DNA of 41,089 bases from a virus (taxonomy: Duplodnaviria > Heunggongvirae > Uroviricota > Caudoviricetes): IMG/VR virus record IMGVR_UViG_2563366819_000008; one strand, written 5' to 3'. Below, piece by piece: positions 3,087-34,893 of the stretch; within the stretch, counting starts at the first letter, position 1; each line of letters opens with the position of its first letter. The position numbers and the translations under genes were made by a program. Below the pieces are notes generated by a model. The model worked only from the letters and a program-made list of their open reading frames with translations. It did no database searches and was not told where the DNA came from.

Positions 3087-3190
3087 ACTTTCTCCTGTTT
3101 ACTATCTATAAGCCAGTCAATTATTGATGACTAAACCCGCATAGTAAACCATATATGAATCATTATTGTTCCATATCATATATCTCAATA

Positions 3191-3405: not shown

Positions 3406-6400
3406 TTAACGTTCTTCCAGAGACTGAACCCGCTCTTTTATCTTATCCATTTCTCTGCGCTGCCATGCTGCCTCGATATAGAATAAGAGATCAGGTCTGA
3501 CCCCCCATCTAGATCCTGCTGGCGTTATTTCAACGCGCTCAATGATGTCTTCTATTACCATCACTGGATTATCATCCTCATCAACAATGATGCTCCCGTC
3601 ATTATCAGTCAGCGGCATTTCCCTTTGGCCAGTAATGACGTCATCATATACTGCGGGATAATCGTCATAGCAAAGAAAGGCATAGCGGCATGTTGTGCTT
3701 TCTTCTTCCATGAGTCCGTGAGAAATAAGAACATCACGAAGTTGCTGCGCGATTACACCATGATGTATCCTCGCCCCTTCTTCCCCCTTTATAGCGACAG
3801 CGTTCAGCCATTTATAAGCGATATACCTGACGTCACCCCAGGCATCCAGCAATGCTTCGTCAGGAGAGACCGGCTCTGTCTTTAATGTTCCGTCACTGGT
3901 AACCACAGGATTGGAGCCAAGATAAACTGTCGAGAACCTGTTTCCCGGACCACCAAGAGCATTTACATTATCAAGATAAGGTTTAACATCTCCGTTCTCA
4001 AAAAGATGTTCGAGTGCGTTATATACCGCGCGACGTGGAGTACTGCTTCCGGAACCATGCAACGTTATCATTGCACCATCTGCTGAAGACGTTGTTTCAC
4101 CGCCGCTAACGATTAATCTCTGAGCGGTAACATCATCAGACGGTACTTTCTTCGCAATAATGGCGTAATTACCCTCAAGTTTGACTTCCGCGCGAACTTG
4201 TCCTGATGTACCTGCATGGACAGTCAGTGACTGGACGGCAACATCATCTGTGAAATCAACGGGTACAGGAACCGTCCTCACGCCTGACGTCGACATAAAA
4301 GTAGGAAGCGTTCTGTTAGGAGTGGCTCCGTAGACAAAATCCCTTGAAACAAATTCTTCCTGTTTAATTTTCACCCTGAAACAATACAAATCAGCCGGGT
4401 GACCATCGTGAACATAAGGATATTTTCTGTTGTTATCCCCTATGCTCCATGGGTTTAGAAAGTCTTCTCCACCGAAAATGTAGTACAGCCAGTTGTCTTT
4501 GATACAAACTGAACCAACACCAACCGCAGAGTTAACTATTCCGCCCTGATAAATCTGATCAGTAACATTAACCCACTCTACATTATCCAGACTCCACTCA
4601 TTGACGTTAACTCTGGTCATAAATGTTCTTGGATAATTTCCTGCATAACGGTTATCAGGCTCTCCTCCTTCCCACTCACCAAATGCGCGCTCACTGCCAA
4701 AAATAATCAGCTCATCGCCAACTTTGGCAAAAGGAAGGTTTGAGTGATGAACATTATTTGGGAAGCGAAGAGAATTCCATGATGTACCTAAATCAGAGCT
4801 TCTGTGCAATGAACTACCGGGTTGAGTACTTAATGTCCCCCTGGTCGTCAGATACAGAATGCCATCATAATATTTTACACATGGCTCAGATGCATTCGCC
4901 TCATATTCTGCAGGTATGCGTCTGCGAACAAAGCTACCAGGAGAACCGAAAGCATCAGAGAAATAGAGTATCCCAAGCTCGCGTGGACCAATATCACCAT
5001 TATGGTAGCCAACAGCAAAACTGTTATCGCTAATCGTCGCAAAACTGTGAATCTCAGTAACAGGAGTGCTTCCGTCAACAAAAGAAGGAATAGTTCCAAG
5101 ACTGGTTTTTCTCCATGGTGACGAGTGAAATGATGTACCAAAACTCCAGTATCTACCCTCGTTATTCTGATCCACATCCTGGGTATTTTGCGTCGTAACT
5201 GTAAAAGTATTTTTATCAATAACAGTAGTCACCGTCATATTCCCGGTAACACCTGTAACACCAGAGTTTGAGAAGTTGACAAAATCACCAGCAAATAATC
5301 CGTGATCAGTAATGCGAATATAAGCGACTTGCTGATTTGCTGCTTTCGTTATACCACCATAAACGCGAAGGCTGCGACTCATTGGGCGATCCCACAACTC
5401 TGCAACCTGCAGTTTATTTCCGCTCACGGTCCGCGTCTCAATTACAGCAAAAAGGCGATTTCTGACAACCCCCATACTCATGCAGTGATAGTTAACTGTG
5501 GGATAGTTTTCATGTAAATCTGTAAGCCATTCCGGCGTTGTCCAGGTCTTCCCGTCATCTCCTGAGCGAACCCATGCAACATGGAGGTTATTTACACCAT
5601 GGCGGTCTCCAGCCATAAAAGGCGCATAGATGACATTGTCATATACAAACGTTTTATCCTGCGTCCAGGCGTTGTACCACGGTGTATCTGTAATTTTAAA
5701 TAACTCTCCCTGGATAAAATCTTCAGAAGCATAAAAAAGAGGCTGGCCCGGTATTCTCTCAAATAAAAAACGAGCATTTTTAAATCGACTGACATCCGGA
5801 AGAGTTGATACTTTAAAAGTAAGCCCTAATCCGTCAATTTTATAACCTGGAGATGAGGCTTCAAGGCACGCGCTTATTGCAGTGGAGTCGTCATTTATAC
5901 CATCACCAACAGCTCCAAAATCTTTGGGGCTAATAGCATCACGCATTTTATCCTGGAACGTTCGGTACACAGCCCCAGAACCATACTGAATAAACCAACC
6001 AAAACCACCAACAACCCCGGCAATTGCAGCATCAACATAATTACGCATTGAGCGATTATTTACAGCGTCCTGCTCAAATGATGGATCTGCAAGGTTAGAA
6101 ATTTTGTTTTGCTTTGCATCGTAATATTTTGCAAGCAGAGAGGGCTTCATCAATGCACGTCTGAACCACCCAAAACATTGCTGGATCAGCATCGTCAGGT
6201 AGTCAAAGGCATCTTCATGCACTTCGGGGAAAAATTTTCCCTGATTGCGAAGGTCTGTCTCCTGCACTACATCAAGCACACGATCTATCGTAATTCGCCA
6301 TCCAGTAGCAAGCGGAGACGGAAGAACCACAGAACCGCCACTATAAGTGCCCGCCCCAGTTACCGTATAACCGGTATCCAGGACCAATTCTGTTACGTTC

Positions 6401-6525
6401 CCGTTCAGGTCAGACACCTGAACAACCAGGTCTGATTTTCTGAAAATTCGAAAAGTATACGGAAACGATGTCGTAACGCCGTTACCGGTGTATTCGTTGT
6501 GGTCAACTTCGGTTGAGACCGTCAT
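3406..6525 (-). CDS. Tailspike protein (1039 aa) with beta-helix glycosidase-like body and C-terminal intramolecular-chaperone domain
   Basis: N-terminal particle-binding type domain; DFGAVGDGINDDSTAI motif typical of pectate-lyase-fold tailspikes; C-terminal region resembling self-cleaving chaperone domains of endosialidase-type fibres. Confidence 0.8.
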   Translation of the reverse strand: MTVSTEVDHNEYTGNGVTTSFPYTFRIFRKSDLVVQVSDLNGNVTELVLDTGYTVTGAGTYSGGSVVLPSPLATGWRITIDRVLDVVQETDLRNQGKFFPEVHEDAFDYLTMLIQQCFGWFRRALMKPSLLAKYYDAKQNKISNLADPSFEQDAVNNRSMRNYVDAAIAGVVGGFGWFIQYGSGAVYRTFQDKMRDAISPKDFGAVGDGINDDSTAISACLEASSPGYKIDGLGLTFKVSTLPDVSRFKNARFLFERIPGQPLFYASEDFIQGELFKITDTPWYNAWTQDKTFVYDNVIYAPFMAGDRHGVNNLHVAWVRSGDDGKTWTTPEWLTDLHENYPTVNYHCMSMGVVRNRLFAVIETRTVSGNKLQVAELWDRPMSRSLRVYGGITKAANQQVAYIRITDHGLFAGDFVNFSNSGVTGVTGNMTVTTVIDKNTFTVTTQNTQDVDQNNEGRYWSFGTSFHSSPWRKTSLGTIPSFVDGSTPVTEIHSFATISDNSFAVGYHNGDIGPRELGILYFSDAFGSPGSFVRRRIPAEYEANASEPCVKYYDGILYLTTRGTLSTQPGSSLHRSSDLGTSWNSLRFPNNVHHSNLPFAKVGDELIIFGSERAFGEWEGGEPDNRYAGNYPRTFMTRVNVNEWSLDNVEWVNVTDQIYQGGIVNSAVGVGSVCIKDNWLYYIFGGEDFLNPWSIGDNNRKYPYVHDGHPADLYCFRVKIKQEEFVSRDFVYGATPNRTLPTFMSTSGVRTVPVPVDFTDDVAVQSLTVHAGTSGQVRAEVKLEGNYAIIAKKVPSDDVTAQRLIVSGGETTSSADGAMITLHGSGSSTPRRAVYNALEHLFENGDVKPYLDNVNALGGPGNRFSTVYLGSNPVVTSDGTLKTEPVSPDEALLDAWGDVRYIAYKWLNAVAIKGEEGARIHHGVIAQQLRDVLISHGLMEEESTTCRYAFLCYDDYPAVYDDVITGQREMPLTDNDGSIIVDEDDNPVMVIEDIIERVEITPAGSRWGVRPDLLFYIEAAWQRREMDKIKERVQSLEER

Positions 6526-7008: not shown

Positions 7009-7025
7009 TTTACCTTTGCGGTAAA
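7009..7025. promoter_or_regulatory. Operator-like palindrome TTTACC-TTTGC-GGTAAA
   Basis: Same TTACC-N5-GGTAA motif. Confidence 0.55.
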
Positions 7026-7115
7026 TTTACATCGCACTCCTCTTGTGCCATAGTAATCGGGCACTGGCAAAATCCAGTGCCGGGATTGGTCTCCCGGATT
7101 ACTAAGTGGCGCATA

Positions 7116-7137
7116 CCACGCCAGACGTGGTTTTTTT
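7116..7137 (+). terminator. Intrinsic terminator (CCACG/CGTGG hairpin plus T7)
   Basis: ccacgccagacgtggttttttt; lies in the 270-bp leader between operator 7009 and ant start 7296. Confidence 0.5.
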
Positions 7138-7295
7138 ATGCGTATAGCACAGTCATGCCAGAATTATGGTGGGCTGAATGGGGGTCCGAAAGGACGCCGG
7201 TACCACTTAGGCCGGTAAGACCAACTCCGTTCAGTTCACCACCATCTGATTGGTCTCAGCGGTGGTGATGTAATTCGCTAAGTGGAGACGCCATC

Positions 7296-7952
7296 ATGAA
7301 CGCTCAACTCATCCCCGTATTCAACGGCACTATATCTAACGAAACAGCCCTACTTTGTAATGCCCGCGATCTGCACGCTTTTTTAGGTGTTAAAAAGGTG
7401 TTTGCAGCATGGATTACAAATCGCATATCAGAATACGAATTCATTGAAAATCAAGACTATATTTTGCTTTCCAATTTGGGAAAGCAAACATCTGGTAGAG
7501 GCGGCCACAACCGCAAAGAGTACCACCTCACCCTTGATACAGCCAAAGAGCTGGCGATGGTCGAGCGTAACGAAAAAGGTCGTCAGGTACGACGCTACTT
7601 CATTGAATGCGAGAAACGTTTAAGACAACAAGAAACAAAAGTGGAGAAGGTCTTGTCAGGCTTCATGCCCGCCATTATGGAGGCGATCAAGCTGGAAGAC
7701 AAAAAAGAATACAGTGCCCCGCTGAAGCCCGGCTACCGCAGCCTGATTCATTCGCCGTCTGGTGTTCTCGGCCTGACGGAGAACTCACTGCTGATGAATC
7801 TGCTGAACCAGTTACAGGAAGACGGGCACGACGTATCGGGCGCGGCGGCGGAGCTGACCACCATGTTCTGCTACATCGTCGGTGTGAGCAAATGCCTGCG
7901 TGATATCCAGACGCACGCGGAGTACATCAACGACAAGGCAGGGTTCTTCTGA
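7296..7952 (+). CDS. Antirepressor (AntA-like N-terminal domain)
   Basis: N-terminal LIPVFNG...[10 protein letters not shown]...[16 protein letters not shown] resembles AntA/Rha-type antirepressor domains; lies in an immI-like position next to tailspike. Confidence 0.6.
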
Positions 7953-8957: not shown

Positions 8958-8969
8958 GTGACATGTCAC
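8958..8969. repeat. 12-bp perfect palindrome GTGACATGTCAC (copy 1 of 3)
   Basis: Contains the TGA stop of the 8966..9346 lipoprotein gene; adjacent to terminator hairpin. Confidence 0.8.
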
Positions 8970-23357: not shown

Positions 23358-23654
23358 TCACTCCTGTTCACTGGCCTCTTTGGCCATCTTCAAATACTGT
23401 TCAGGGCAATGCGCCATAACGCGCTGAAACAGTTCCAGCGCCAGATTGCGTTGCCCCTCATTAAATGCCATTGCCATAGCGTCCATCGGTGAGATAGCGG
23501 AAAACACACGGCCTTTCTCCAGCACCGACCAGACAACGCGACGCCCCTGTTCACTGCTCATGACAAAGCGAATGTCATCAATTTCACGCTGTGCCATGTC
23601 ACGTTGCTTACGGGCGTTTTCTTCTTTCAGTTGATCATCTTCGTAATCTGTCAT
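23358..23654 (-). CDS. Hypothetical small protein between portal and scaffold
   Basis: Overlaps portal stop; conserved position in head module. Confidence 0.4.
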   Translation of the reverse strand: MTDYEDDQLKEENARKQRDMAQREIDDIRFVMSSEQGRRVVWSVLEKGRVFSAISPMDAMAMAFNEGQRNLALELFQRVMAHCPEQYLKMAKEASEQE

Positions 23655-25330
23655 TGTGATTGCCCACCCTGACCACTAACTGCATTCGCCATAGCTGACA
23701 AAACACTCGGATCCGAAGTTTTAGCTTCGCTTAGCGTCTTGGCGCCCTGTGCCGCCGCCATTCCCATCGCCATCATTTGTTGCTGCTGTTGCTGCTGTGC
23801 CCGTTGCTGGCGAGCCTGCTCAACCTGTTCCTGCGGAACAATGACGGTTGGAGACACTCCGGACATATCAGCGAATGCATCGATCGCCTGATCAACGTTG
23901 AGTTTGTCGAGAGCTTCTGGTTTCGCTTGCGCAAGTTGACCAATGAAGTTGACCGTAGACGCCAGACTGGACAGGCCGATAGACTTCTGCGCCTGAGCCA
24001 TGACGGAAATGTATTCGACCTTCAGGGGCATACCTTCCATCGCGTCAGGCGGTGGCGGCAGCATGTTTTTACGCACCATCATCGAGAAAGCGCGGTCAAT
24101 GAGAGGATTAAGACATTCGTCGTTCAGACGCTCCAGAACCGGCCCCAACATCAGAAGTTTTTCTTCTTTCATTTCGATCACCGCTTCAACAGGCATCGAG
24201 CGGGTATTGATGTTCTGCAACATCATGAACAGATCGACAAAGTAGGCGCTGTTAATGATTTGACGAGTGTCCTGAATGTCTGCCACCAAATCTGCTGTAC
24301 TGGGGTTAACCAGATAAGCAGGCCTGAAACCATCCTGACCAGTAATCTGATCGATATACGTGATGTCGCCAGGAAGAAGGGAGGCACGCTGATTCTTGAG
24401 GGAAGTCGGAGCAACCATCGGCGGATTGGTGGCTTTATCAATCAACTGCGACTTGCGCTTCTGGAGAAGCTGCAATGCCTTAACAGGTCCAAGCGCCAGC
24501 ATACCCGGGCATGATGATCCATAAACATCTTCGCCGTTAACTTCCCAGCGCGGAGCCATAATTGGAAACTCATCGAATCCGGACTCACGCAACAACTTGT
24601 CGTTATCGCCACCAACCTCGTAATAAACCGATTTGAATGGCTTGTTCTTGCTATCCAGCTTCGATGTATCGCGGTCAATGTTCGGGTAAACCGAATGCAT
24701 CACTTCAATCCACTTCTCGTAGGTGCCGCTTTCCCACATGCTTTTTACGGATTCGCTGACGTTATTTAGCCCGAACTCCTGAACAAGCTGACGAACAGTC
24801 ATAGAGAACTTGCGAAAACAGGTGTCCACACTGCCACGAGGTGAGTTAGCCAGGTAGTAACTGCCTATCGGGAATGGCATTGTGCGAATGATGTCCTCGT
24901 CATCCTCCAGCACCGCCATTGCACCAGTGCTGTATGTGCCGAGGCTTCCGTATAACTGCGGCAGCGACTGATAGAGATTCGACTTATTGAACATATCGTT
25001 CATGCGGTTCTGCACCGCCTCAAGCCACAACTTAACAGGGCCATAATCCATCATTTCAGGATCTGGCGTAGCCAGGCGAAACCACGGACGCGCAGGGCTT
25101 GTGATGCCTGACATCATGCCGCTGGCGAGAGTGCGCGCCGCCATAGTCCCGGTCGAATCAATAATGCGTGTGTTGCGTCGATCGTTACGGTTGACCTCAG
25201 AAGTCAGAAAGCGGGAACCACGCGGGTTGATGTAATCACTCAACTCGCGCCAGTGCGGCTCGAACGACTGACGCTCGCTTTCAAGTTGTGCGAACTGTTT
25301 GTTCAATCGCTCTTTAGTTGTTTCCGCCAT
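23651..25330 (-). CDS. Portal protein (T7-like head-to-tail connector), 559 aa
   Basis: Size, position after terminase, Gln-rich C-terminal tail. Confidence 0.75.
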   Translation of the reverse strand: MAETTKERLNKQFAQLESERQSFEPHWRELSDYINPRGSRFLTSEVNRNDRRNTRIIDSTGTMAARTLASGMMSGITSPARPWFRLATPDPEMMDYGPVKLWLEAVQNRMNDMFNKSNLYQSLPQLYGSLGTYSTGAMAVLEDDEDIIRTMPFPIGSYYLANSPRGSVDTCFRKFSMTVRQLVQEFGLNNVSESVKSMWESGTYEKWIEVMHSVYPNIDRDTSKLDSKNKPFKSVYYEVGGDNDKLLRESGFDEFPIMAPRWEVNGEDVYGSSCPGMLALGPVKALQLLQKRKSQLIDKATNPPMVAPTSLKNQRASLLPGDITYIDQITGQDGFRPAYLVNPSTADLVADIQDTRQIINSAYFVDLFMMLQNINTRSMPVEAVIEMKEEKLLMLGPVLERLNDECLNPLIDRAFSMMVRKNMLPPPPDAMEGMPLKVEYISVMAQAQKSIGLSSLASTVNFIGQLAQAKPEALDKLNVDQAIDAFADMSGVSPTVIVPQEQVEQARQQRAQQQQQQQMMAMGMAAAQGAKTLSEAKTSDPSVLSAMANAVSGQGGQSQ

Positions 25331-25344
25331 TTCAATGACTCCGG

Positions 25345-25551: not shown

Positions 25552-25640
25552 ATCAATGACTCCGTACGCAATTAAATTATTACCAATTTAACCACATATG
25601 ATTTATTTATCGTAGACAGTTGACATTTAACGCGCGAATT

Positions 25641-25657
25641 ATTACCTTTCAGGTAAC
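25641..25657. promoter_or_regulatory. Operator-like palindrome ATTACC-TTTCA-GGTAAC upstream of the portal operon
   Basis: Same TTACC-N5-GGTAA motif; TTGACA-like hexamer about 20 bp to the left. Confidence 0.55.
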
Positions 25658-25978
25658 CAAAGAGTTCATTCCGGTTACTAACCTGACTGGCTTGTCGTTA
25701 AATTGAACAGGTGGAGTGAGCTTTTATTTTGAGCAGTACGGCGTATGGCACATGCGACGATAGCGGTCTGGATACGTTTAAGGGGCACCCTCCCTTGCTC
25801 GGGCAAACGAACCAGGTAGCCGGAATGTGCAAGTCGAGCGGTTTTATTCCGCGCACGGGGATTCACCATCCCGGCTATTCGGTGTGACGCCTCGGAAGAG
25901 ACGAGGGTACAACGATGAGAGCATTTATGGAGCCGCGACAAAGTGTGGCGCCTTAACAGGCTAAGTGCTCTCAGCGTT

Positions 25979-26055
25979 GTGGCATTAGCTCAGTCGGACA
26001 GAGCAACCGCCTTCTAAGCGGTTGGTCGCAGGTTCGAATCCTGCATGCCACGCCA
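25979..26055 (+). tRNA. tRNA-Arg, anticodon UCU (reads AGA)
   Basis: Acceptor stem GTGGCAT/ATGCCAC, D arm GCTC/GAGC, anticodon stem ACCGC/GCGGT with loop CTTCTAA, T arm GCAGG-TTCGAAT-CCTGC, 3' GCCA; similar but not identical to host argU. Confidence 0.85.
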
Positions 26056-26098
26056 GAATCACGCCTAAGGACCGTGATGCCAGAAGTTCCAGGTGCTT

Positions 26099-26140
26099 GG
26101 CGGTGATGGTTTCCCTTGAAGGACTATCACCGCCCTTTTT
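26099..26140 (+). terminator. Hairpin (GGCGGTGAT/ATCACCGCC) plus T-run after the tRNA
   Basis: Seen in sequence; long loop, so strength uncertain. Confidence 0.45.
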
Positions 26141-26218
26141 ACAGCAGGACGCCATTGCGATGACTTCATGCTGTAAACCAGTACAGCCACGGAAGGCATA
26201 ACTCATTGCTTCCAGTTC

Positions 26219-26242
26219 GCCCGGTTCGCCGGGCATTTTTTT
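26219..26242 (+). terminator. Intrinsic terminator-like hairpin GCCCGG-TTCG-CCGGGC plus A-T7, immediately upstream of the RBS of the 26254 ORF
   Basis: Seen in sequence; followed directly by aaggtgag and ATG. Confidence 0.55.
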
Positions 26243-26253
26243 AAGGTGAGATC

Positions 26254-26676
26254 ATGAAAACAGCCGACATGCTAGCTAAATATCTAAATGAATGGCCGTG
26301 CAAATATGTACGCATTGTTCAGGGTGATGATTCAATTTTTTATGGTGTTTTTGCAGGAAATGAAATGCTTTGTGAAGCAATTCCAGGTGAGCGACTTGCC
26401 GGGTTAACGCTTAGCGATGACCATGGAATAGGAGTTACTTGCCATGACTGGATTTCAGCGCAGAAAACTGAAATGGAAAAAGGCAATGTGTTTGATATTT
26501 CTCGCGCTGTATACGCCAAAGAAAAAAGTGATGATGATTACATGCGCGAAAACTTATACAACATGAAGTTACAATGCCTGGCTGAAGTGCTTAGTAAAAG
26601 ATCTTTACTTGATGTGGTTGGTGCTGAGCAGGACGCCAAGGCAATCAACGCCGCATTCGATAAAATAACCTTCTAA
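26254..26676 (+). CDS. Hypothetical cytoplasmic protein (140 aa), cargo gene antisense to the late operon
   Basis: Good RBS; no TM or signal peptide; own terminator; no family recognised. Confidence 0.5.
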   Translation: MKTADMLAKYLNEWPCKYVRIVQGDDSIFYGVFAGNEMLCEAIPGERLAGLTLSDDHGIGVTCHDWISAQKTEMEKGNVFDISRAVYAKEKSDDDYMRENLYNMKLQCLAEVLSKRSLLDVVGAEQDAKAINAAFDKITF

Positions 26677-26680
26677 CGCC

Positions 26681-26692
26681 GTGACATGTCAC
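26681..26692. repeat. 12-bp perfect palindrome GTGACATGTCAC (copy 2 of 3)
   Basis: Between the 26676 stop and the terminator hairpin. Confidence 0.8.
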
Positions 26693-26697
26693 AATCA

Positions 26698-26721
26698 GCC
26701 CGCCGATTCGCGGGCTTTTTT
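26698..26721 (+). terminator. Intrinsic terminator GCCCGC-cgattc-GCGGGC plus T6
   Basis: Overlaps the 3' end of terL on the other strand. Confidence 0.65.
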
Positions 26722-28195
26722 ATGCAAAAGGATCATAGTCTGTGATGGCTTTGCCTTGCTGGTTCTGCTGCCCGGGAATTCGCAGACGCTTCGACACAGG
26801 GAACGCAAACGTCAGCAGTAGCGCATCGCCTTTACCCGGCGAACGCCCAAGCCGCTCCTTGATATCTTCCTTCGGTTCGATAACGATTTTACCGTCCACA
26901 CGAACTTTGTACTCTGCTGCCGACAGGTCGTCCGCTGTTTCCTGGTCATCCAGCATGCCGCCGAGCCTCAGCCATGTCTTGCATGAGTTGAACATCTCCC
27001 CACGCTTGTTAAGCATCTGCGGGTCAGTAGACGCGCCACCGAACGGAACAAGTTGCCATGTACGACCCCAGCCGTCACCGATTGACTTCAAACCGGTTCC
27101 GTAACCGAAGTCGATGAACACCGCGTCAGCCTGATACTGGTCTTCAAAGTCAGCGATACGCTTCGCCATAATCAGATCGTCGGTAGTCTTGTTGCCAGTC
27201 CACAGCACCTTACTGTGTAGCCCCTGCCGCAGGTATATCACAGCGTCATCAACGCCGGAGTATGCCGGGTCAACGCCGATTATCACCGGAGCATGTGCAA
27301 CCTGCGCAGCGGTTACCACCCGTTTCATTGCCTCGTCAGTAAGACCGGTAGGGATAAACTGCAATTCAGATGCATCAGGGAATATGCCACGCACACGGAT
27401 TTTAACGAAGTCGCTGTCTTCCCCGTAGTCATCAACCCATTTCTGCAACTGCTGTTTGTTGGTACCTTCCACCGTCCGACTGTCAATCTGCGCAGTTTTC
27501 CAGCGGTGTTTATACTTGCGGAAACATTCACGGAAACGTCCGGTGTTACGAGTAGGGTTTCCGAACGCCACCCAGATAATCTCAGTGTCTTCGTCCGTAA
27601 GCGCACCCTCAGCAACTTCCCACACCAGATCCGCAATGTTCGACGCTTCATCGAATACCACGATGATGCGTTTGCGCTCGTTGTGTAGTCCGGCGAATGC
27701 CTCAGTGTTGTGCTCAGACCAGGGGATTGCGTCAGCTCGCCACCGCTTGTCGTGCCCAGGATCATTGCTGTACATCGCGGTAGCGGTACAGGTAAACCAG
27801 TCTTTCGTGATAGCAAGGTTCGACCACTTGATAATTTCCGGCCAGGTCTTCGTTCGTAGCTGGTTGTCGGTGTTGGCGGTCACCACGACCTTACAATCCT
27901 CGCAAGTGGACATGCCCCAGTTGATCAACATTGAGATGAATGCTGATTTACCAATACCGTGGCCCGAAGCACGTGCCAGCATAAGCGGCTGATAGCGCGT
28001 CTCGGGATTCTGCAGGTGATCACGTATCTCTCGGAACGCATCGGCCTGCCACTGACGTGGGCCGGTAGCATGTGCCAGTTCAGTCCCCTCTTCCCCCCAC
28101 GGGAACGCATAGAGGGCATAGCCAAGCGGATCGTGAGTGAACCCTGCAATATCCTCGATCAACTGCTCTTCAGGAGATAACGCTGCATCTGTCAC
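26720..28195 (-). CDS. Terminase large subunit
   Basis: Walker A-like GHGIGKSAF, ATPase then nuclease domain organisation; overlaps TerS stop. Confidence 0.85.
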   Translation of the reverse strand: MTDAALSPEEQLIEDIAGFTHDPLGYALYAFPWGEEGTELAHATGPRQWQADAFREIRDHLQNPETRYQPLMLARASGHGIGKSAFISMLINWGMSTCEDCKVVVTANTDNQLRTKTWPEIIKWSNLAITKDWFTCTATAMYSNDPGHDKRWRADAIPWSEHNTEAFAGLHNERKRIIVVFDEASNIADLVWEVAEGALTDEDTEIIWVAFGNPTRNTGRFRECFRKYKHRWKTAQIDSRTVEGTNKQQLQKWVDDYGEDSDFVKIRVRGIFPDASELQFIPTGLTDEAMKRVVTAAQVAHAPVIIGVDPAYSGVDDAVIYLRQGLHSKVLWTGNKTTDDLIMAKRIADFEDQYQADAVFIDFGYGTGLKSIGDGWGRTWQLVPFGGASTDPQMLNKRGEMFNSCKTWLRLGGMLDDQETADDLSAAEYKVRVDGKIVIEPKEDIKERLGRSPGKGDALLLTFAFPVSKRLRIPGQQNQQGKAITDYDPFA

Positions 28196-28898: not shown

Positions 28899-28910
28899 GT
28901 GACATGTCAC
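28899..28910. repeat. 12-bp perfect palindrome GTGACATGTCAC (copy 3 of 3)
   Basis: Contains the TGA stop of the 28907..29248 gene; about 50 bp upstream of the tR'-like hairpin. Confidence 0.8.
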
Positions 28911-29248
28911 ACTATTAATTTCGTTTCATGCCAGCCTTTAGTCACCCAGCATTGCGAGTCACCATTACACGGGCATGAATTAACTGGAACTCTCTCGCCG
29001 CACTTACCGCAACGTTTTCTGCTGATCGATTTTATACGCCCGCGCACGCGTGCATCATCCTGGCGGATCAGTAACGCTATATACTCACCAAATTCGTAAG
29101 GCGCACGCCCGGGGCGACGCGTGGCACAGTTACGCTCCAGCATTTCAATTTCCTGAGCATCAAGCACAATTTCCAGCTTACGCACACCAGATGCAGCTTG
29201 TCTGGCTCTCTGAGCGGCTTTGCGCTCTGCTGCTGATTTAGCCATCAA
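28907..29248 (-). CDS. Zinc-finger protein (Cys cluster CGKCG...CPCNG...C), late-regulator candidate
   Basis: Last gene before the late leader; basic N-terminus; function inferred from position only. Confidence 0.4.
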   Translation of the reverse strand: MMAKSAAERKAAQRARQAASGVRKLEIVLDAQEIEMLERNCATRRPGRAPYEFGEYIALLIRQDDARVRGRIKSISRKRCGKCGERVPVNSCPCNGDSQCWVTKGWHETKLIV

Positions 29249-34308: not shown

Positions 34309-34893
34309 ATGAAAAGTATCCAGGACGTCCGCAGGCAAAATCTCAACGACTTGATCGACCGTGAATTCAATGGTGTTCAGACGCGGATGGCAGAAAAACT
34401 TGGAACTCAGGCAAATCTGGTAAACCGCTGGGCTCTTGGCAAGAAGGTTATCGGCGACCAGGTTGCACGAAAAATTGAAGCTGCCGCCAATAAACCCCGT
34501 AACTGGCTTGATATCGATCGCTCGCTTTCTCAGGAAGGTTTTCAGCCTGTCGGCCCAAGCGACATTGGCCAGCTGGCGGCTCACAACCTGGAACGCTGGA
34601 TGAGCGAAAGCCGCGACCTTTCAACACAGGGAAAACTTCACCGCGCATCCGGCGTAGCCCAGGTGACAATCAGCCGCCTGTTAAACAATGAGGTCAGCGT
34701 TTCCATTTCCACCCTGGAGAATGTTGCATCCGCATTCGGGCGTCACGGCTATGAATTACTGATTCACCCGCACGACCCTGCGACCATCAACTATGATCGC
34801 TCGCGCTACGCATTGTTACCCGAAACCGAGAAAGCAAAGATCGAAAGTTACATTGAATTTGTCATCAACCAGAACGAAAAAAACAAACAATAA
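34309..34893 (+). CDS. Repressor-position protein with two tandem HTH domains and no LexA-like autopeptidase domain
   Basis: Two HTH_XRE-like segments (QTRMAEKLGTQANLVNRW and HRASGVAQVTISRLL); divergent from cro; own terminator. Confidence 0.55.
   Translation: MKSIQDVRRQNLNDLIDREFNGVQTRMAEKLGTQANLVNRWALGKKVIGDQVARKIEAAANKPRNWLDIDRSLSQEGFQPVGPSDIGQLAAHNLERWMSESRDLSTQGKLHRASGVAQVTISRLLNNEVSVSISTLENVASAFGRHGYELLIHPHDPATINYDRSRYALLPETEKAKIESYIEFVINQNEKNKQ

Follow-up and report, generated by a model that had tools for sequence, protein, structure and literature searches.

A putative repressor-controlled tRNA-Arg unit with an exchangeable, candidate counter-defence gene slot between terL and portal of an epsilon15-like phage

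Analysis of a 41,089-nucleotide viral DNA record, IMG/VR IMGVR_UViG_2563366819_000008 (the window, meaning this whole stretch), identified between terL and the portal gene a short plus-strand unit that encodes a tRNA-Arg and a 140-amino-acid (aa) protein. The interval is probably a repressor-controlled slot for lytic-phase counter-defence cassettes that rides on the tRNA unit, and on genomic context the 140-aa protein is a good candidate for an anti-defence product. By sequence comparison the window is a Uetakevirus, a temperate podophage of the epsilon15/phiV10 type; the closest matches to the region are PAS61 (98% identity, 93% coverage), HEMP4 (92%, 100%) and phiV10 (98% over 69%), and epsilon15, SPN1S-like and Klebsiella phages match the region more distantly. 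The tRNA/open reading frame (ORF) block spans 1,168 bp between the ATG of the 68-aa gene gp3 (25551, minus strand) and the stop codon of terL (26720, minus strand). The tRNA, the ORF and their terminators all lie on the plus strand, opposite to the packaging and head genes. A sequence-only reading of the window had described a 1.4-kb plus-strand block within a minus-strand late operon; the opposite-strand insertion in the packaging/head cluster stands and its size is corrected to 1.17 kb. The features of the unit are as follows.

25613 to 25648, plus strand: sigma-70-type promoter from a promoter scan, facing the tRNA/ORF block.
25642 to 25656, no strand: operator TTACCTTTCAGGTAA, one copy of the phage repressor's putative palindromic site.
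25657 to 25978, plus strand: structured 5' leader of about 330 nt, from alignments.
25979 to 26055, plus strand: tRNA-Arg with anticodon UCU and encoded CCA (ARAGORN tRNA-Arg(tct); Rfam RF00005).
26099 to 26140, plus strand: intrinsic terminator T1, a hairpin (26099-26134) with a 14-bp stem, then CUUUUU; -22.8 kcal/mol, z = -5.4.
26138 to 26177, plus strand: hairpin SL1, base stem UUUACAGCA/UGCUGUAAA, apex CAU-UGCG-AUG with UGCG as the loop; fold -12.8 kcal/mol, z = -3.1.
26191 to 26213, plus strand: small hairpin SL2 (GGAAG...CUUCC), a weak fold, z = -1.6.
26219 to 26242, plus strand: intrinsic terminator T2, GCCCGG-UUCG-CCGGGC (26219-26234), then AUUUUUUU; -12.7 kcal/mol.
26243 to 26676, plus strand: Shine-Dalgarno (SD) sequence AAGGTGAG (26243-26250) and 140-aa cargo ORF (26254-26676, ATG start).
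26681 to 26692, no strand: 12-bp palindrome GTGACATGTCAC, the right-hand junction of the cargo slot.
26697 to 26722, plus strand: intrinsic terminator T3, hairpin 26697-26716 with a T-run that overlaps the terL stop codon; conserved in relatives.

The idea of a cargo insertion between terL and portal, already put forward from the sequence, was borne out by relatives that are joined junction to junction without cargo and by others with unrelated genes at the same site. In all matched phages (PAS61, HEMP4, phiV10, epsilon15, SPN9TCW and a Klebsiella phage) the gap between terL and gp3/portal carries plus-strand cargo: the same 140-aa ORF in PAS61 and HEMP4, a PF13876 protein in phiV10 and epsilon15, a 138-aa membrane protein in SPN9TCW and a DUF2829/Tad2-like protein in the Klebsiella phage. 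Of 5,426 complete E. coli genomes, 113 contain the block with the 140-aa ORF and 1,088 contain parts of it. A wider set of at least 120 relatives was retrieved from IMG/VR by exact match to the 16-mer ACGCCATTGCGATGAC (26149-26164), which holds the SL1 apex; its invariance within this set is by construction, and independent support comes from seven independently retrieved phages in which it is identical. Counts of loci given here and below are among the loci listed from this set. In nearly all of them terL follows on the opposite strand, 180-1,200 nt downstream, and wherever enough upstream sequence is available the portal gene lies about 820 nt upstream. The platform, comprising promoter, operator, leader, T1, hairpins, T2, SD and right junction, recurs in more than 100 relatives while the ORF alone changes.

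Exchange occurs at two precise boundaries. On the left, T1, SL1, the variable SL2 and T2 are followed by UUUUUUU-AAGGUGA-N4-6-AUG, with T2 forming the junction in more than 90 loci; on the right, different cargos share a stop codon, GTGACATGTCAC and the T3 hairpin, and GTGACATGTCAC is kept as the right junction in cargo-less loci as well. Six loci lack cargo, T2 leading directly into the right junction and terL. Clustering of the slot ORFs and scanning of representatives against profiles assigned PF13876 to 42 loci, Tad2-like PF11195 to 10 and the Acb2/Tad1-hairpin family PF24729 to one; two preprints identify PF13876 with the Acb4 anti-CBASS sponges and PF11195 with Tad2 (bioRxiv 10.1101/2024.12.30.630793; 10.1101/2025.07.12.664507). 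More than half of the occupants are thus immune-signal sponges. At the T2/SD junction the 140-aa family (19 loci, with truncated or modular variants in addition) ranks next in frequency after these, and 21 loci carry a protein of about 245-290 aa with two transmembrane segments and a coiled coil (2-TM/coiled-coil) preceded by a second operator, four a Cys-rich 143-aa protein, and others small ORFs of about 10 further families. In 29 loci (L007, L033, L034, L039, L051, L053 and others) a second operator ATTACCTTAAAGGTAT directly after T2 replaces the SD junction and overlaps the start region of the 2-TM/coiled-coil protein. This protein has weak coiled-coil matches only, to DndD/LmuB models, and its gene is, from its operator, a different type of cargo that would likewise be under repressor control.

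The occurrence of known sponges at the same junction, together with the second operator on some cargos, makes the slot look like a lytic-phase counter-defence position, and since relatives mostly fill it with known inhibitors of immune signalling, the 140-aa protein is a candidate new anti-defence protein. It shares both position and junctions with anti-defence genes of related genomes, as an occupant of a hotspot would, and the arrangement is of a known kind, a tRNA carried by a phage together with cargo at an anti-defence hotspot. The literature searched yielded no paper linking Uetakevirus, the slot, the platform or the 140-aa family to anti-defence.

The 140-aa ORF, which had been thought to have no recognisable family, is a full-length match to PHROG 4846 (E = 7.7e-87), itself without an assigned function; a literature search found no paper on this family. 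Its SD sits 4-11 nt upstream of the ATG. Pairwise ratios of nonsynonymous to synonymous substitution (dN/dS) against 12 non-identical relatives were 0.16-0.26, which indicates a functional gene under purifying selection. The remote homology search and structure prediction proposed earlier were carried out and returned no known family function or fold: there was no match in Pfam (E <= 1), NCBIfam or PADLOC (0 families at E <= 1), a sequence profile search of the PDB gave 0 matches, and no known fold matched. Comparison with the sponges was equally negative, with no PF13876, PF11195 or PF24729 match and hhalign probabilities of 0.25% against phiV10 gp03 and 0.8% against the Acb2-like cargo of L054. 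All 111 homologues, from Escherichia, Salmonella, Citrobacter, Klebsiella, Enterobacter and Hafnia, are annotated as hypothetical, and an exhaustive profile search of 1.84 billion representative proteins recovered just 31 clusters at 50% identity, none with an informative fusion. Enterobacter and Salmonella prophages carry distant homologues (41-45% identity) in the same slot with an Acb4 gene about 11 nt downstream, and a Hafnia homologue is surrounded by further small ORFs in the corresponding slot. Mildly acidic (pI 4.8), the protein shows no hydrophobic segment on inspection and is by these features soluble and cytoplasmic.

A confident AlphaFold2 model built from a 36-sequence alignment (mean predicted local distance difference test score, pLDDT, 83.5) predicts an N-terminal alpha/beta domain (residues 1-75; a helix, a three-stranded sheet and a helix), a flexible or disordered linker (about 80-91) and a C-terminal helical hairpin (93-137). 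The two parts are shuffled among relatives. By itself the hairpin makes up a 61-aa cargo (L093, L074), and it also follows different N-domains (P0125, P0126); the N-domain is joined to another C-domain in L070 and P0116 and is duplicated in P0135. Such an architecture would suit an adaptor or regulator and, with the location between terL and portal and the lack of homology to any anti-defence protein, raises the alternative that the ORF serves the phage itself in packaging, head assembly, the lysis-lysogeny decision or host takeover. We consider this improbable: the ORF is dispensable, as unrelated genes or nothing take its place in close relatives with 98-100% identity over the N-terminal segments of terL and portal; it runs on the strand opposite to the morphogenesis genes; and the slot is shared with Acb4, which in the distant relatives even adjoins the ORF on the same strand.

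The promoter offers two possible hexamer pairs, TAGACA-N18-AATTAT (25613-25642) or TTGACA (25620-25625)-N17-TACCTT. TACCTT is the left half of the operator and AATTAT abuts it, and the -10 is therefore overlapped or abutted under either assignment; the same placement of a -10 next to the operator is repeated at sites 35013, 7010 and 8025, and the TTGAC of the -35 is unchanged in an alignment of seven phages. The operator copy had been noticed earlier at 25641; it is TTACCTTTCAGGTAA at 25642-25656, and the window holds 13 matches to TTACC-N5-GGTAA in all (10 perfect), where chance predicts 0.67. Of these, four lie around the HTH_3 repressor-like gene 34309-34893, one stands ahead of the isrK/C4/AntA immunity region and two ahead of terS. 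The homologous site in epsilon15 is annotated 'repressor, lysogeny', 99 of 107 related loci have an operator upstream, and it is from the epsilon15 annotation and the enrichment that we take the palindrome to be bound by the repressor. In the epsilon15 GenBank record the same gap also holds an annotated IHF site, RNase III site and terminator. The earlier suggestion that this operator restarts late transcription into portal did not hold: both the invariant -35 and the -10 are plus-strand elements directed into the tRNA/ORF block, and a promoter scan found no sigma-70-like minus-strand promoter at the operator. Thus the operator-controlled promoter is predicted to fire into the tRNA/ORF block rather than portal.

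This promoter bears on whether the ORF might instead benefit the prophage, as a moron-like gene for conversion, superinfection exclusion or defence with leaky or read-through expression in the lysogen. In favour of such a role are the low G+C content (GC), the terminator-bracketed anatomy and a family limited to enterobacterial prophages, as well as the company kept in the slot, which includes transmembrane proteins and the 2-TM/coiled-coil type with its weak coiled-coil matches to DndD/LmuB models. Still, the sole upstream promoter is overlapped by the repressor operator, a second operator marks the cargo start in 29 relatives, the protein is soluble and acidic and lacks both a hydrophobic segment and a PADLOC match, and the dominant cargos are anti-defence sponges; we judge a prophage-benefit role unlikely. 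Of the roles first proposed (lysogenic conversion, anti-defence or exclusion), anti-defence is therefore the one strengthened, through Acb4, Tad2-like and Acb2/Tad1 genes at the same junctions, and the other two are disfavoured by the promoter and the character of the protein.

T1, T2 and T3 all have the form of intrinsic terminators, a GC-rich hairpin followed immediately by a U-run on the transcribed strand. T1 shows pairs changed on both sides across relatives, with G-U pairs that favour the plus strand, and T2 shows compensatory changes from GG/CC to AC/GU. The sequence-only reading had the ORF bracketed by terminators, one of them abutting its ribosome-binding site, and this proved correct: the T2 U-run ends where the SD begins and T3 follows the ORF. 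It had overlooked T1 at 26099-26134. Neither scan nor inspection revealed a plausible promoter between T1 and the ORF. As the ORF lies behind terminators, its expression must use read-through or regulated termination, in line with the read-through or attenuation envisaged before. Read on the minus strand, these hairpins have the homopolymer run ahead of them instead of behind, and late transcripts from terL are therefore not predicted to stop there.

ARAGORN found one tRNA in the entire window, the tRNA-Arg(tct) at 25979-26055, and the Rfam covariance model agreed (RF00005, 73.3 bits against a gathering score of 29), confirming the phage-encoded tRNA-Arg(UCU) of the earlier description; phage and E. 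coli records annotate it likewise, and it is present at the homologous position in 72 of 107 related loci. The identity elements of E. coli ArgRS, the arginyl-tRNA synthetase, are A20, C35 and A/G73. The sequence carries the D-loop AGUCGGACA (G18 G19 A20), C35, the anticodon UCU, discriminator G73 and CCA, and by these rules the tRNA should be chargeable. Its proposed role in reading the rare AGA codon agrees with codon usage: the window's ORFs use AGA and AGG at 7.6 and 5.5 per 1000 codons, with 24 such codons in the 1039-aa ORF 3406-6525 alone, where they are especially frequent. The corresponding values for E. coli genes are about 2 and 1, three to four times less. The simplest reading is that the tRNA supplements AGA/AGG decoding in lytic growth. 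Like other phage tRNAs, such as the tRNA-Arg genes of lambdoid Shiga toxin (Stx) phages and the tRNA clusters of T4 and T5, it is canonical, probably chargeable and directed to a host-rare codon enriched in phage genes; unlike them, it sits within a putatively repressor-controlled unit with a conserved leader of about 330 nt, and tRNA-less relatives hold non-canonical tRNA-like RNAs of 83-146 nt at the same position.

These tRNA-like RNAs, found in L021, L031, L054, L058, L059, L072, L077, L078, L082, L100, L101 and L127, have the same flanks as the tRNA (GTGCTCT..GTT and ATCACGCC). They comprise at least six sequence types with compensatory stem changes, share an acceptor-like stem GUGGUG/CACCAC with D-arm- and T-arm-like hairpins around an enlarged variable middle, and in some cases end in A-CCA. 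Default ARAGORN and Rfam at gathering score do not detect them; the L021 type matched Rfam Methylophilales-1 over its full length but below threshold (29.7 bits against 79.9, E = 0.056).

Within the leader, hairpin A (25739-25759) presents a conserved loop UGGCACA, and a further module of about 200 nt, which always accompanies a tRNA or tRNA-like gene, contains, besides the hairpin CCUCG-GAAGAGA-CGAGG, a long stem GAGAGCA/UGCUCUC closing immediately 5' of the tRNA. On inspection, hairpin A and the pre-tRNA stem show compensatory changes, as do the alternatives GGGA/UCCC and ACGA/UCGU. The whole leader folds with z = -3.75; RNAalifold on the core of about 150 nt of the pre-tRNA module gave little covariation, and no confident fold is claimed for it. 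A sigma-54-like reading of TGGCAC in hairpin A was rejected for want of a -12 element by inspection. Downstream, SL1 contains one covarying pair (GC in five sequences, AU in five); an Enterobacter prophage (L127) and a Salmonella prophage (L130) differ from its 16-mer by one or two bases, which turns the tetraloop UGCG into UCCG and preserves the UNCG type. SL2 is variable, or deleted in some relatives such as PAS61. Leader, hairpin A, SL1, SL2, T2 and the 200-nt module match no Rfam 15 family at gathering score, the tRNA alone passing; the best sub-threshold scores were RyhB (18.1 bits against 55) and, on T3, Trp_leader (24.3 against 41).

The near-invariant SL1 apex and the long U tail of T2, as in Hfq-type small RNAs (sRNAs), the tie between the 200-nt module and an upstream tRNA or tRNA-like gene, and the retention of the platform in the six cargo-less loci suggest yet another alternative, in which RNA is the main product (the tRNA and possibly an SL1-SL2-T2 small RNA) and the ORF a barely expressed passenger behind two terminators. 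It would account for the cargo-less platform but not for the purifying selection on the ORF, which moreover has a good SD at a conserved distance and shares its junction with known functional sponges; no sRNA family of Rfam matched, RyhB reaching 18 bits of the 55 required, and the sole candidate target, the portal translation start, is not conserved. We hold it to be less probable again than the two protein-based alternatives.

Three more specific RNA-based ideas were tried and set aside. The SL1 loop pairs with the portal translation start (25324-25339) at 14 of 16 positions, where about 0.5 chance matches are expected, and this drops to 9 of 16 in epsilon15, SPN9TCW and the Klebsiella phage with the loop unchanged. 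At 26203-26215, the 3' arm of SL2 just before T2, there is a 13-nt identity with the RyhB core (CAUUGCUUCCAGU); the Rfam score of 18 bits is insignificant and the stretch is not conserved in Klebsiella-type relatives. Leader-peptide attenuation through an upstream ORF (uORF), MTSCCKPVQPRKA* (start 26160), was rejected as the peptide is not conserved (MTLRCKPV... in Salmonella types) and the SD-like AGGA is missing in those types. In other types the uORF continues in frame into the cargo ORF, accounting for the database variants of 163 to 204 aa.

If the slot is a lytic-phase counter-defence position, the unit would be silent in the lysogen and fire upon infection or induction, when the derepressed promoter would drive a long precursor RNA. 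Most transcripts would end at T1 or T2 and be processed to the tRNA, which would supplement AGA/AGG decoding, and the read-through fraction would be translated from the SD beside the U-run into the cytoplasmic 140-aa protein. This protein would then counteract a host defence system by a mechanism that is not deducible from its sequence or fold, while T3 would keep the transcript from running antisense into terL.

Several points weigh against such a scheme. The functional call is guilt by location, for a protein with no homology to known inhibitors. Two good terminators between the sole promoter found and the ORF would restrict its expression, which is odd for a stoichiometric inhibitor, and in some relatives the slot holds membrane or coiled-coil proteins that resemble exclusion or abortive-infection products more closely. 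The promoter has a weak -10 element, and the scan by itself does not exceed chance; likewise, binding of the repressor to the palindrome is argued from a GenBank annotation of epsilon15 and from a count of sites. The architecture is observed, and the steps of expression and regulation are inferred from sequence.

Morons of temperate phages, a concept of Hendrix and Juhala exemplified by lambda bor/lom and HK97 gp15, are extra genes between conserved morphogenesis genes. The present ORF resembles them in this position, in the terminator of its own after the gene, in its absence or replacement in close relatives (the six cargo-less loci, and unrelated genes elsewhere) and in its composition (41-43% GC against 53-55% in portal and terL). 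It departs from them in sharing a putatively repressor-controlled promoter with the tRNA rather than having its own promoter active in the repressed prophage, in lying behind two terminators, which points to lytic-phase rather than prophage expression, and in being exchanged at two precise conserved junctions, the U-run/SD on the left and GTGACATGTCAC with a terminator on the right. In JBD30-group Mu-like Pseudomonas phages and at other anti-defence hotspots, unrelated small inhibitor genes are swapped at a fixed position in the head region of phages that are otherwise almost identical. The slot is like the JBD30-group anti-CRISPR loci in its fixed position among head genes, its swapped unrelated small genes and its dedicated, putatively repressor-controlled promoter. 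Unlike theirs, its control is apparently by the main immunity repressor and not by a dedicated Aca protein, it is coupled to a tRNA, a long structured leader and tandem terminators, and its known occupants are nucleotide-signal sponges, not anti-CRISPR (Acr) proteins. With Acb4, Tad2 and Acb2/Tad1 the 140-aa protein shares slot, SD junction, small size and cytoplasmic location, whereas it has no detectable sequence, profile or fold similarity to them and consists of two domains, an alpha/beta domain and a helical hairpin.

If the context argument is right, the slot is a ready catalogue of counter-defence genes in common enterobacterial prophages. Marked by three validated sponge families, it would make some 15 other cassette families, the 140-aa family first, prioritised candidates for immunity inhibitors, and because the junctions are fixed, further candidates can be collected by a simple rule. 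The leader with its tandem terminators also poses a tractable question, namely how temperate phages time and dose anti-defence expression. A more ambitious combination of ideas is, taken together, a long shot: that PHROG 4846 is a new counter-defence class acting as a sponge or direct inhibitor, that the leader (hairpin A, T1, SL1, SL2 and T2) is an RNA switch gating the cassette by processive antitermination or protein- or ligand-controlled attenuation, and that the upstream RNA position is itself a counter-defence slot, filled by the tRNA or by tRNA-like decoys against tRNA-targeting nucleases.

Further observations concern the surroundings of the unit. The palindrome GTGACATGTCAC occurs in three perfect copies in the window (8958-8969, 26681-26692 and 28899-28910) against 0.2 expected, each immediately following a stop codon and next to the hairpin of an intrinsic terminator, with a one-mismatch copy at 23591. 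A mini-ORF M-x-(D/Y)-E-F-D-G-F* adjoins the copy at 28899 on the minus strand and is also found in the slot of epsilon15, L021 and L076. Upstream of the promoter lies one more feature.

25552 to 25612, no strand: conserved block of about 60 bp, from alignment, between the gp3 start codon and the plus-strand promoter.

Most alignment columns of this block do not vary among the E. coli, Salmonella and Klebsiella relatives, a conservation that exceeds that of nearby coding sequence, and it contains the motif AACCACATATG (25590-25600), present in five copies in the window against 0.69 expected (the others at 3147, 6563, 6590 and 31873). The block is possibly regulatory for gp3/portal, for example as a binding site for a late-gene regulator or as an activator-dependent promoter. 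The 113-aa protein encoded just upstream of terS (28907-29248, minus strand), which has an Arg-rich N-terminus and a C-terminal Cys cluster (CGKCG...CPCNGDSQC) and no match in Pfam or NCBIfam, may be a late-gene regulator. A P1/P7-like immI arrangement occupies 7010-7952, with an operator (7010), isrK (7061-7137, 67.7 bits), C4 antisense RNA (7162-7246, 61.2 bits) and an AntA-family antirepressor (7296-7952) in that order. Elsewhere in the related viral contig L059, positions 3929-4154 match a group II intron domain (RF02005, 186.6 bits).

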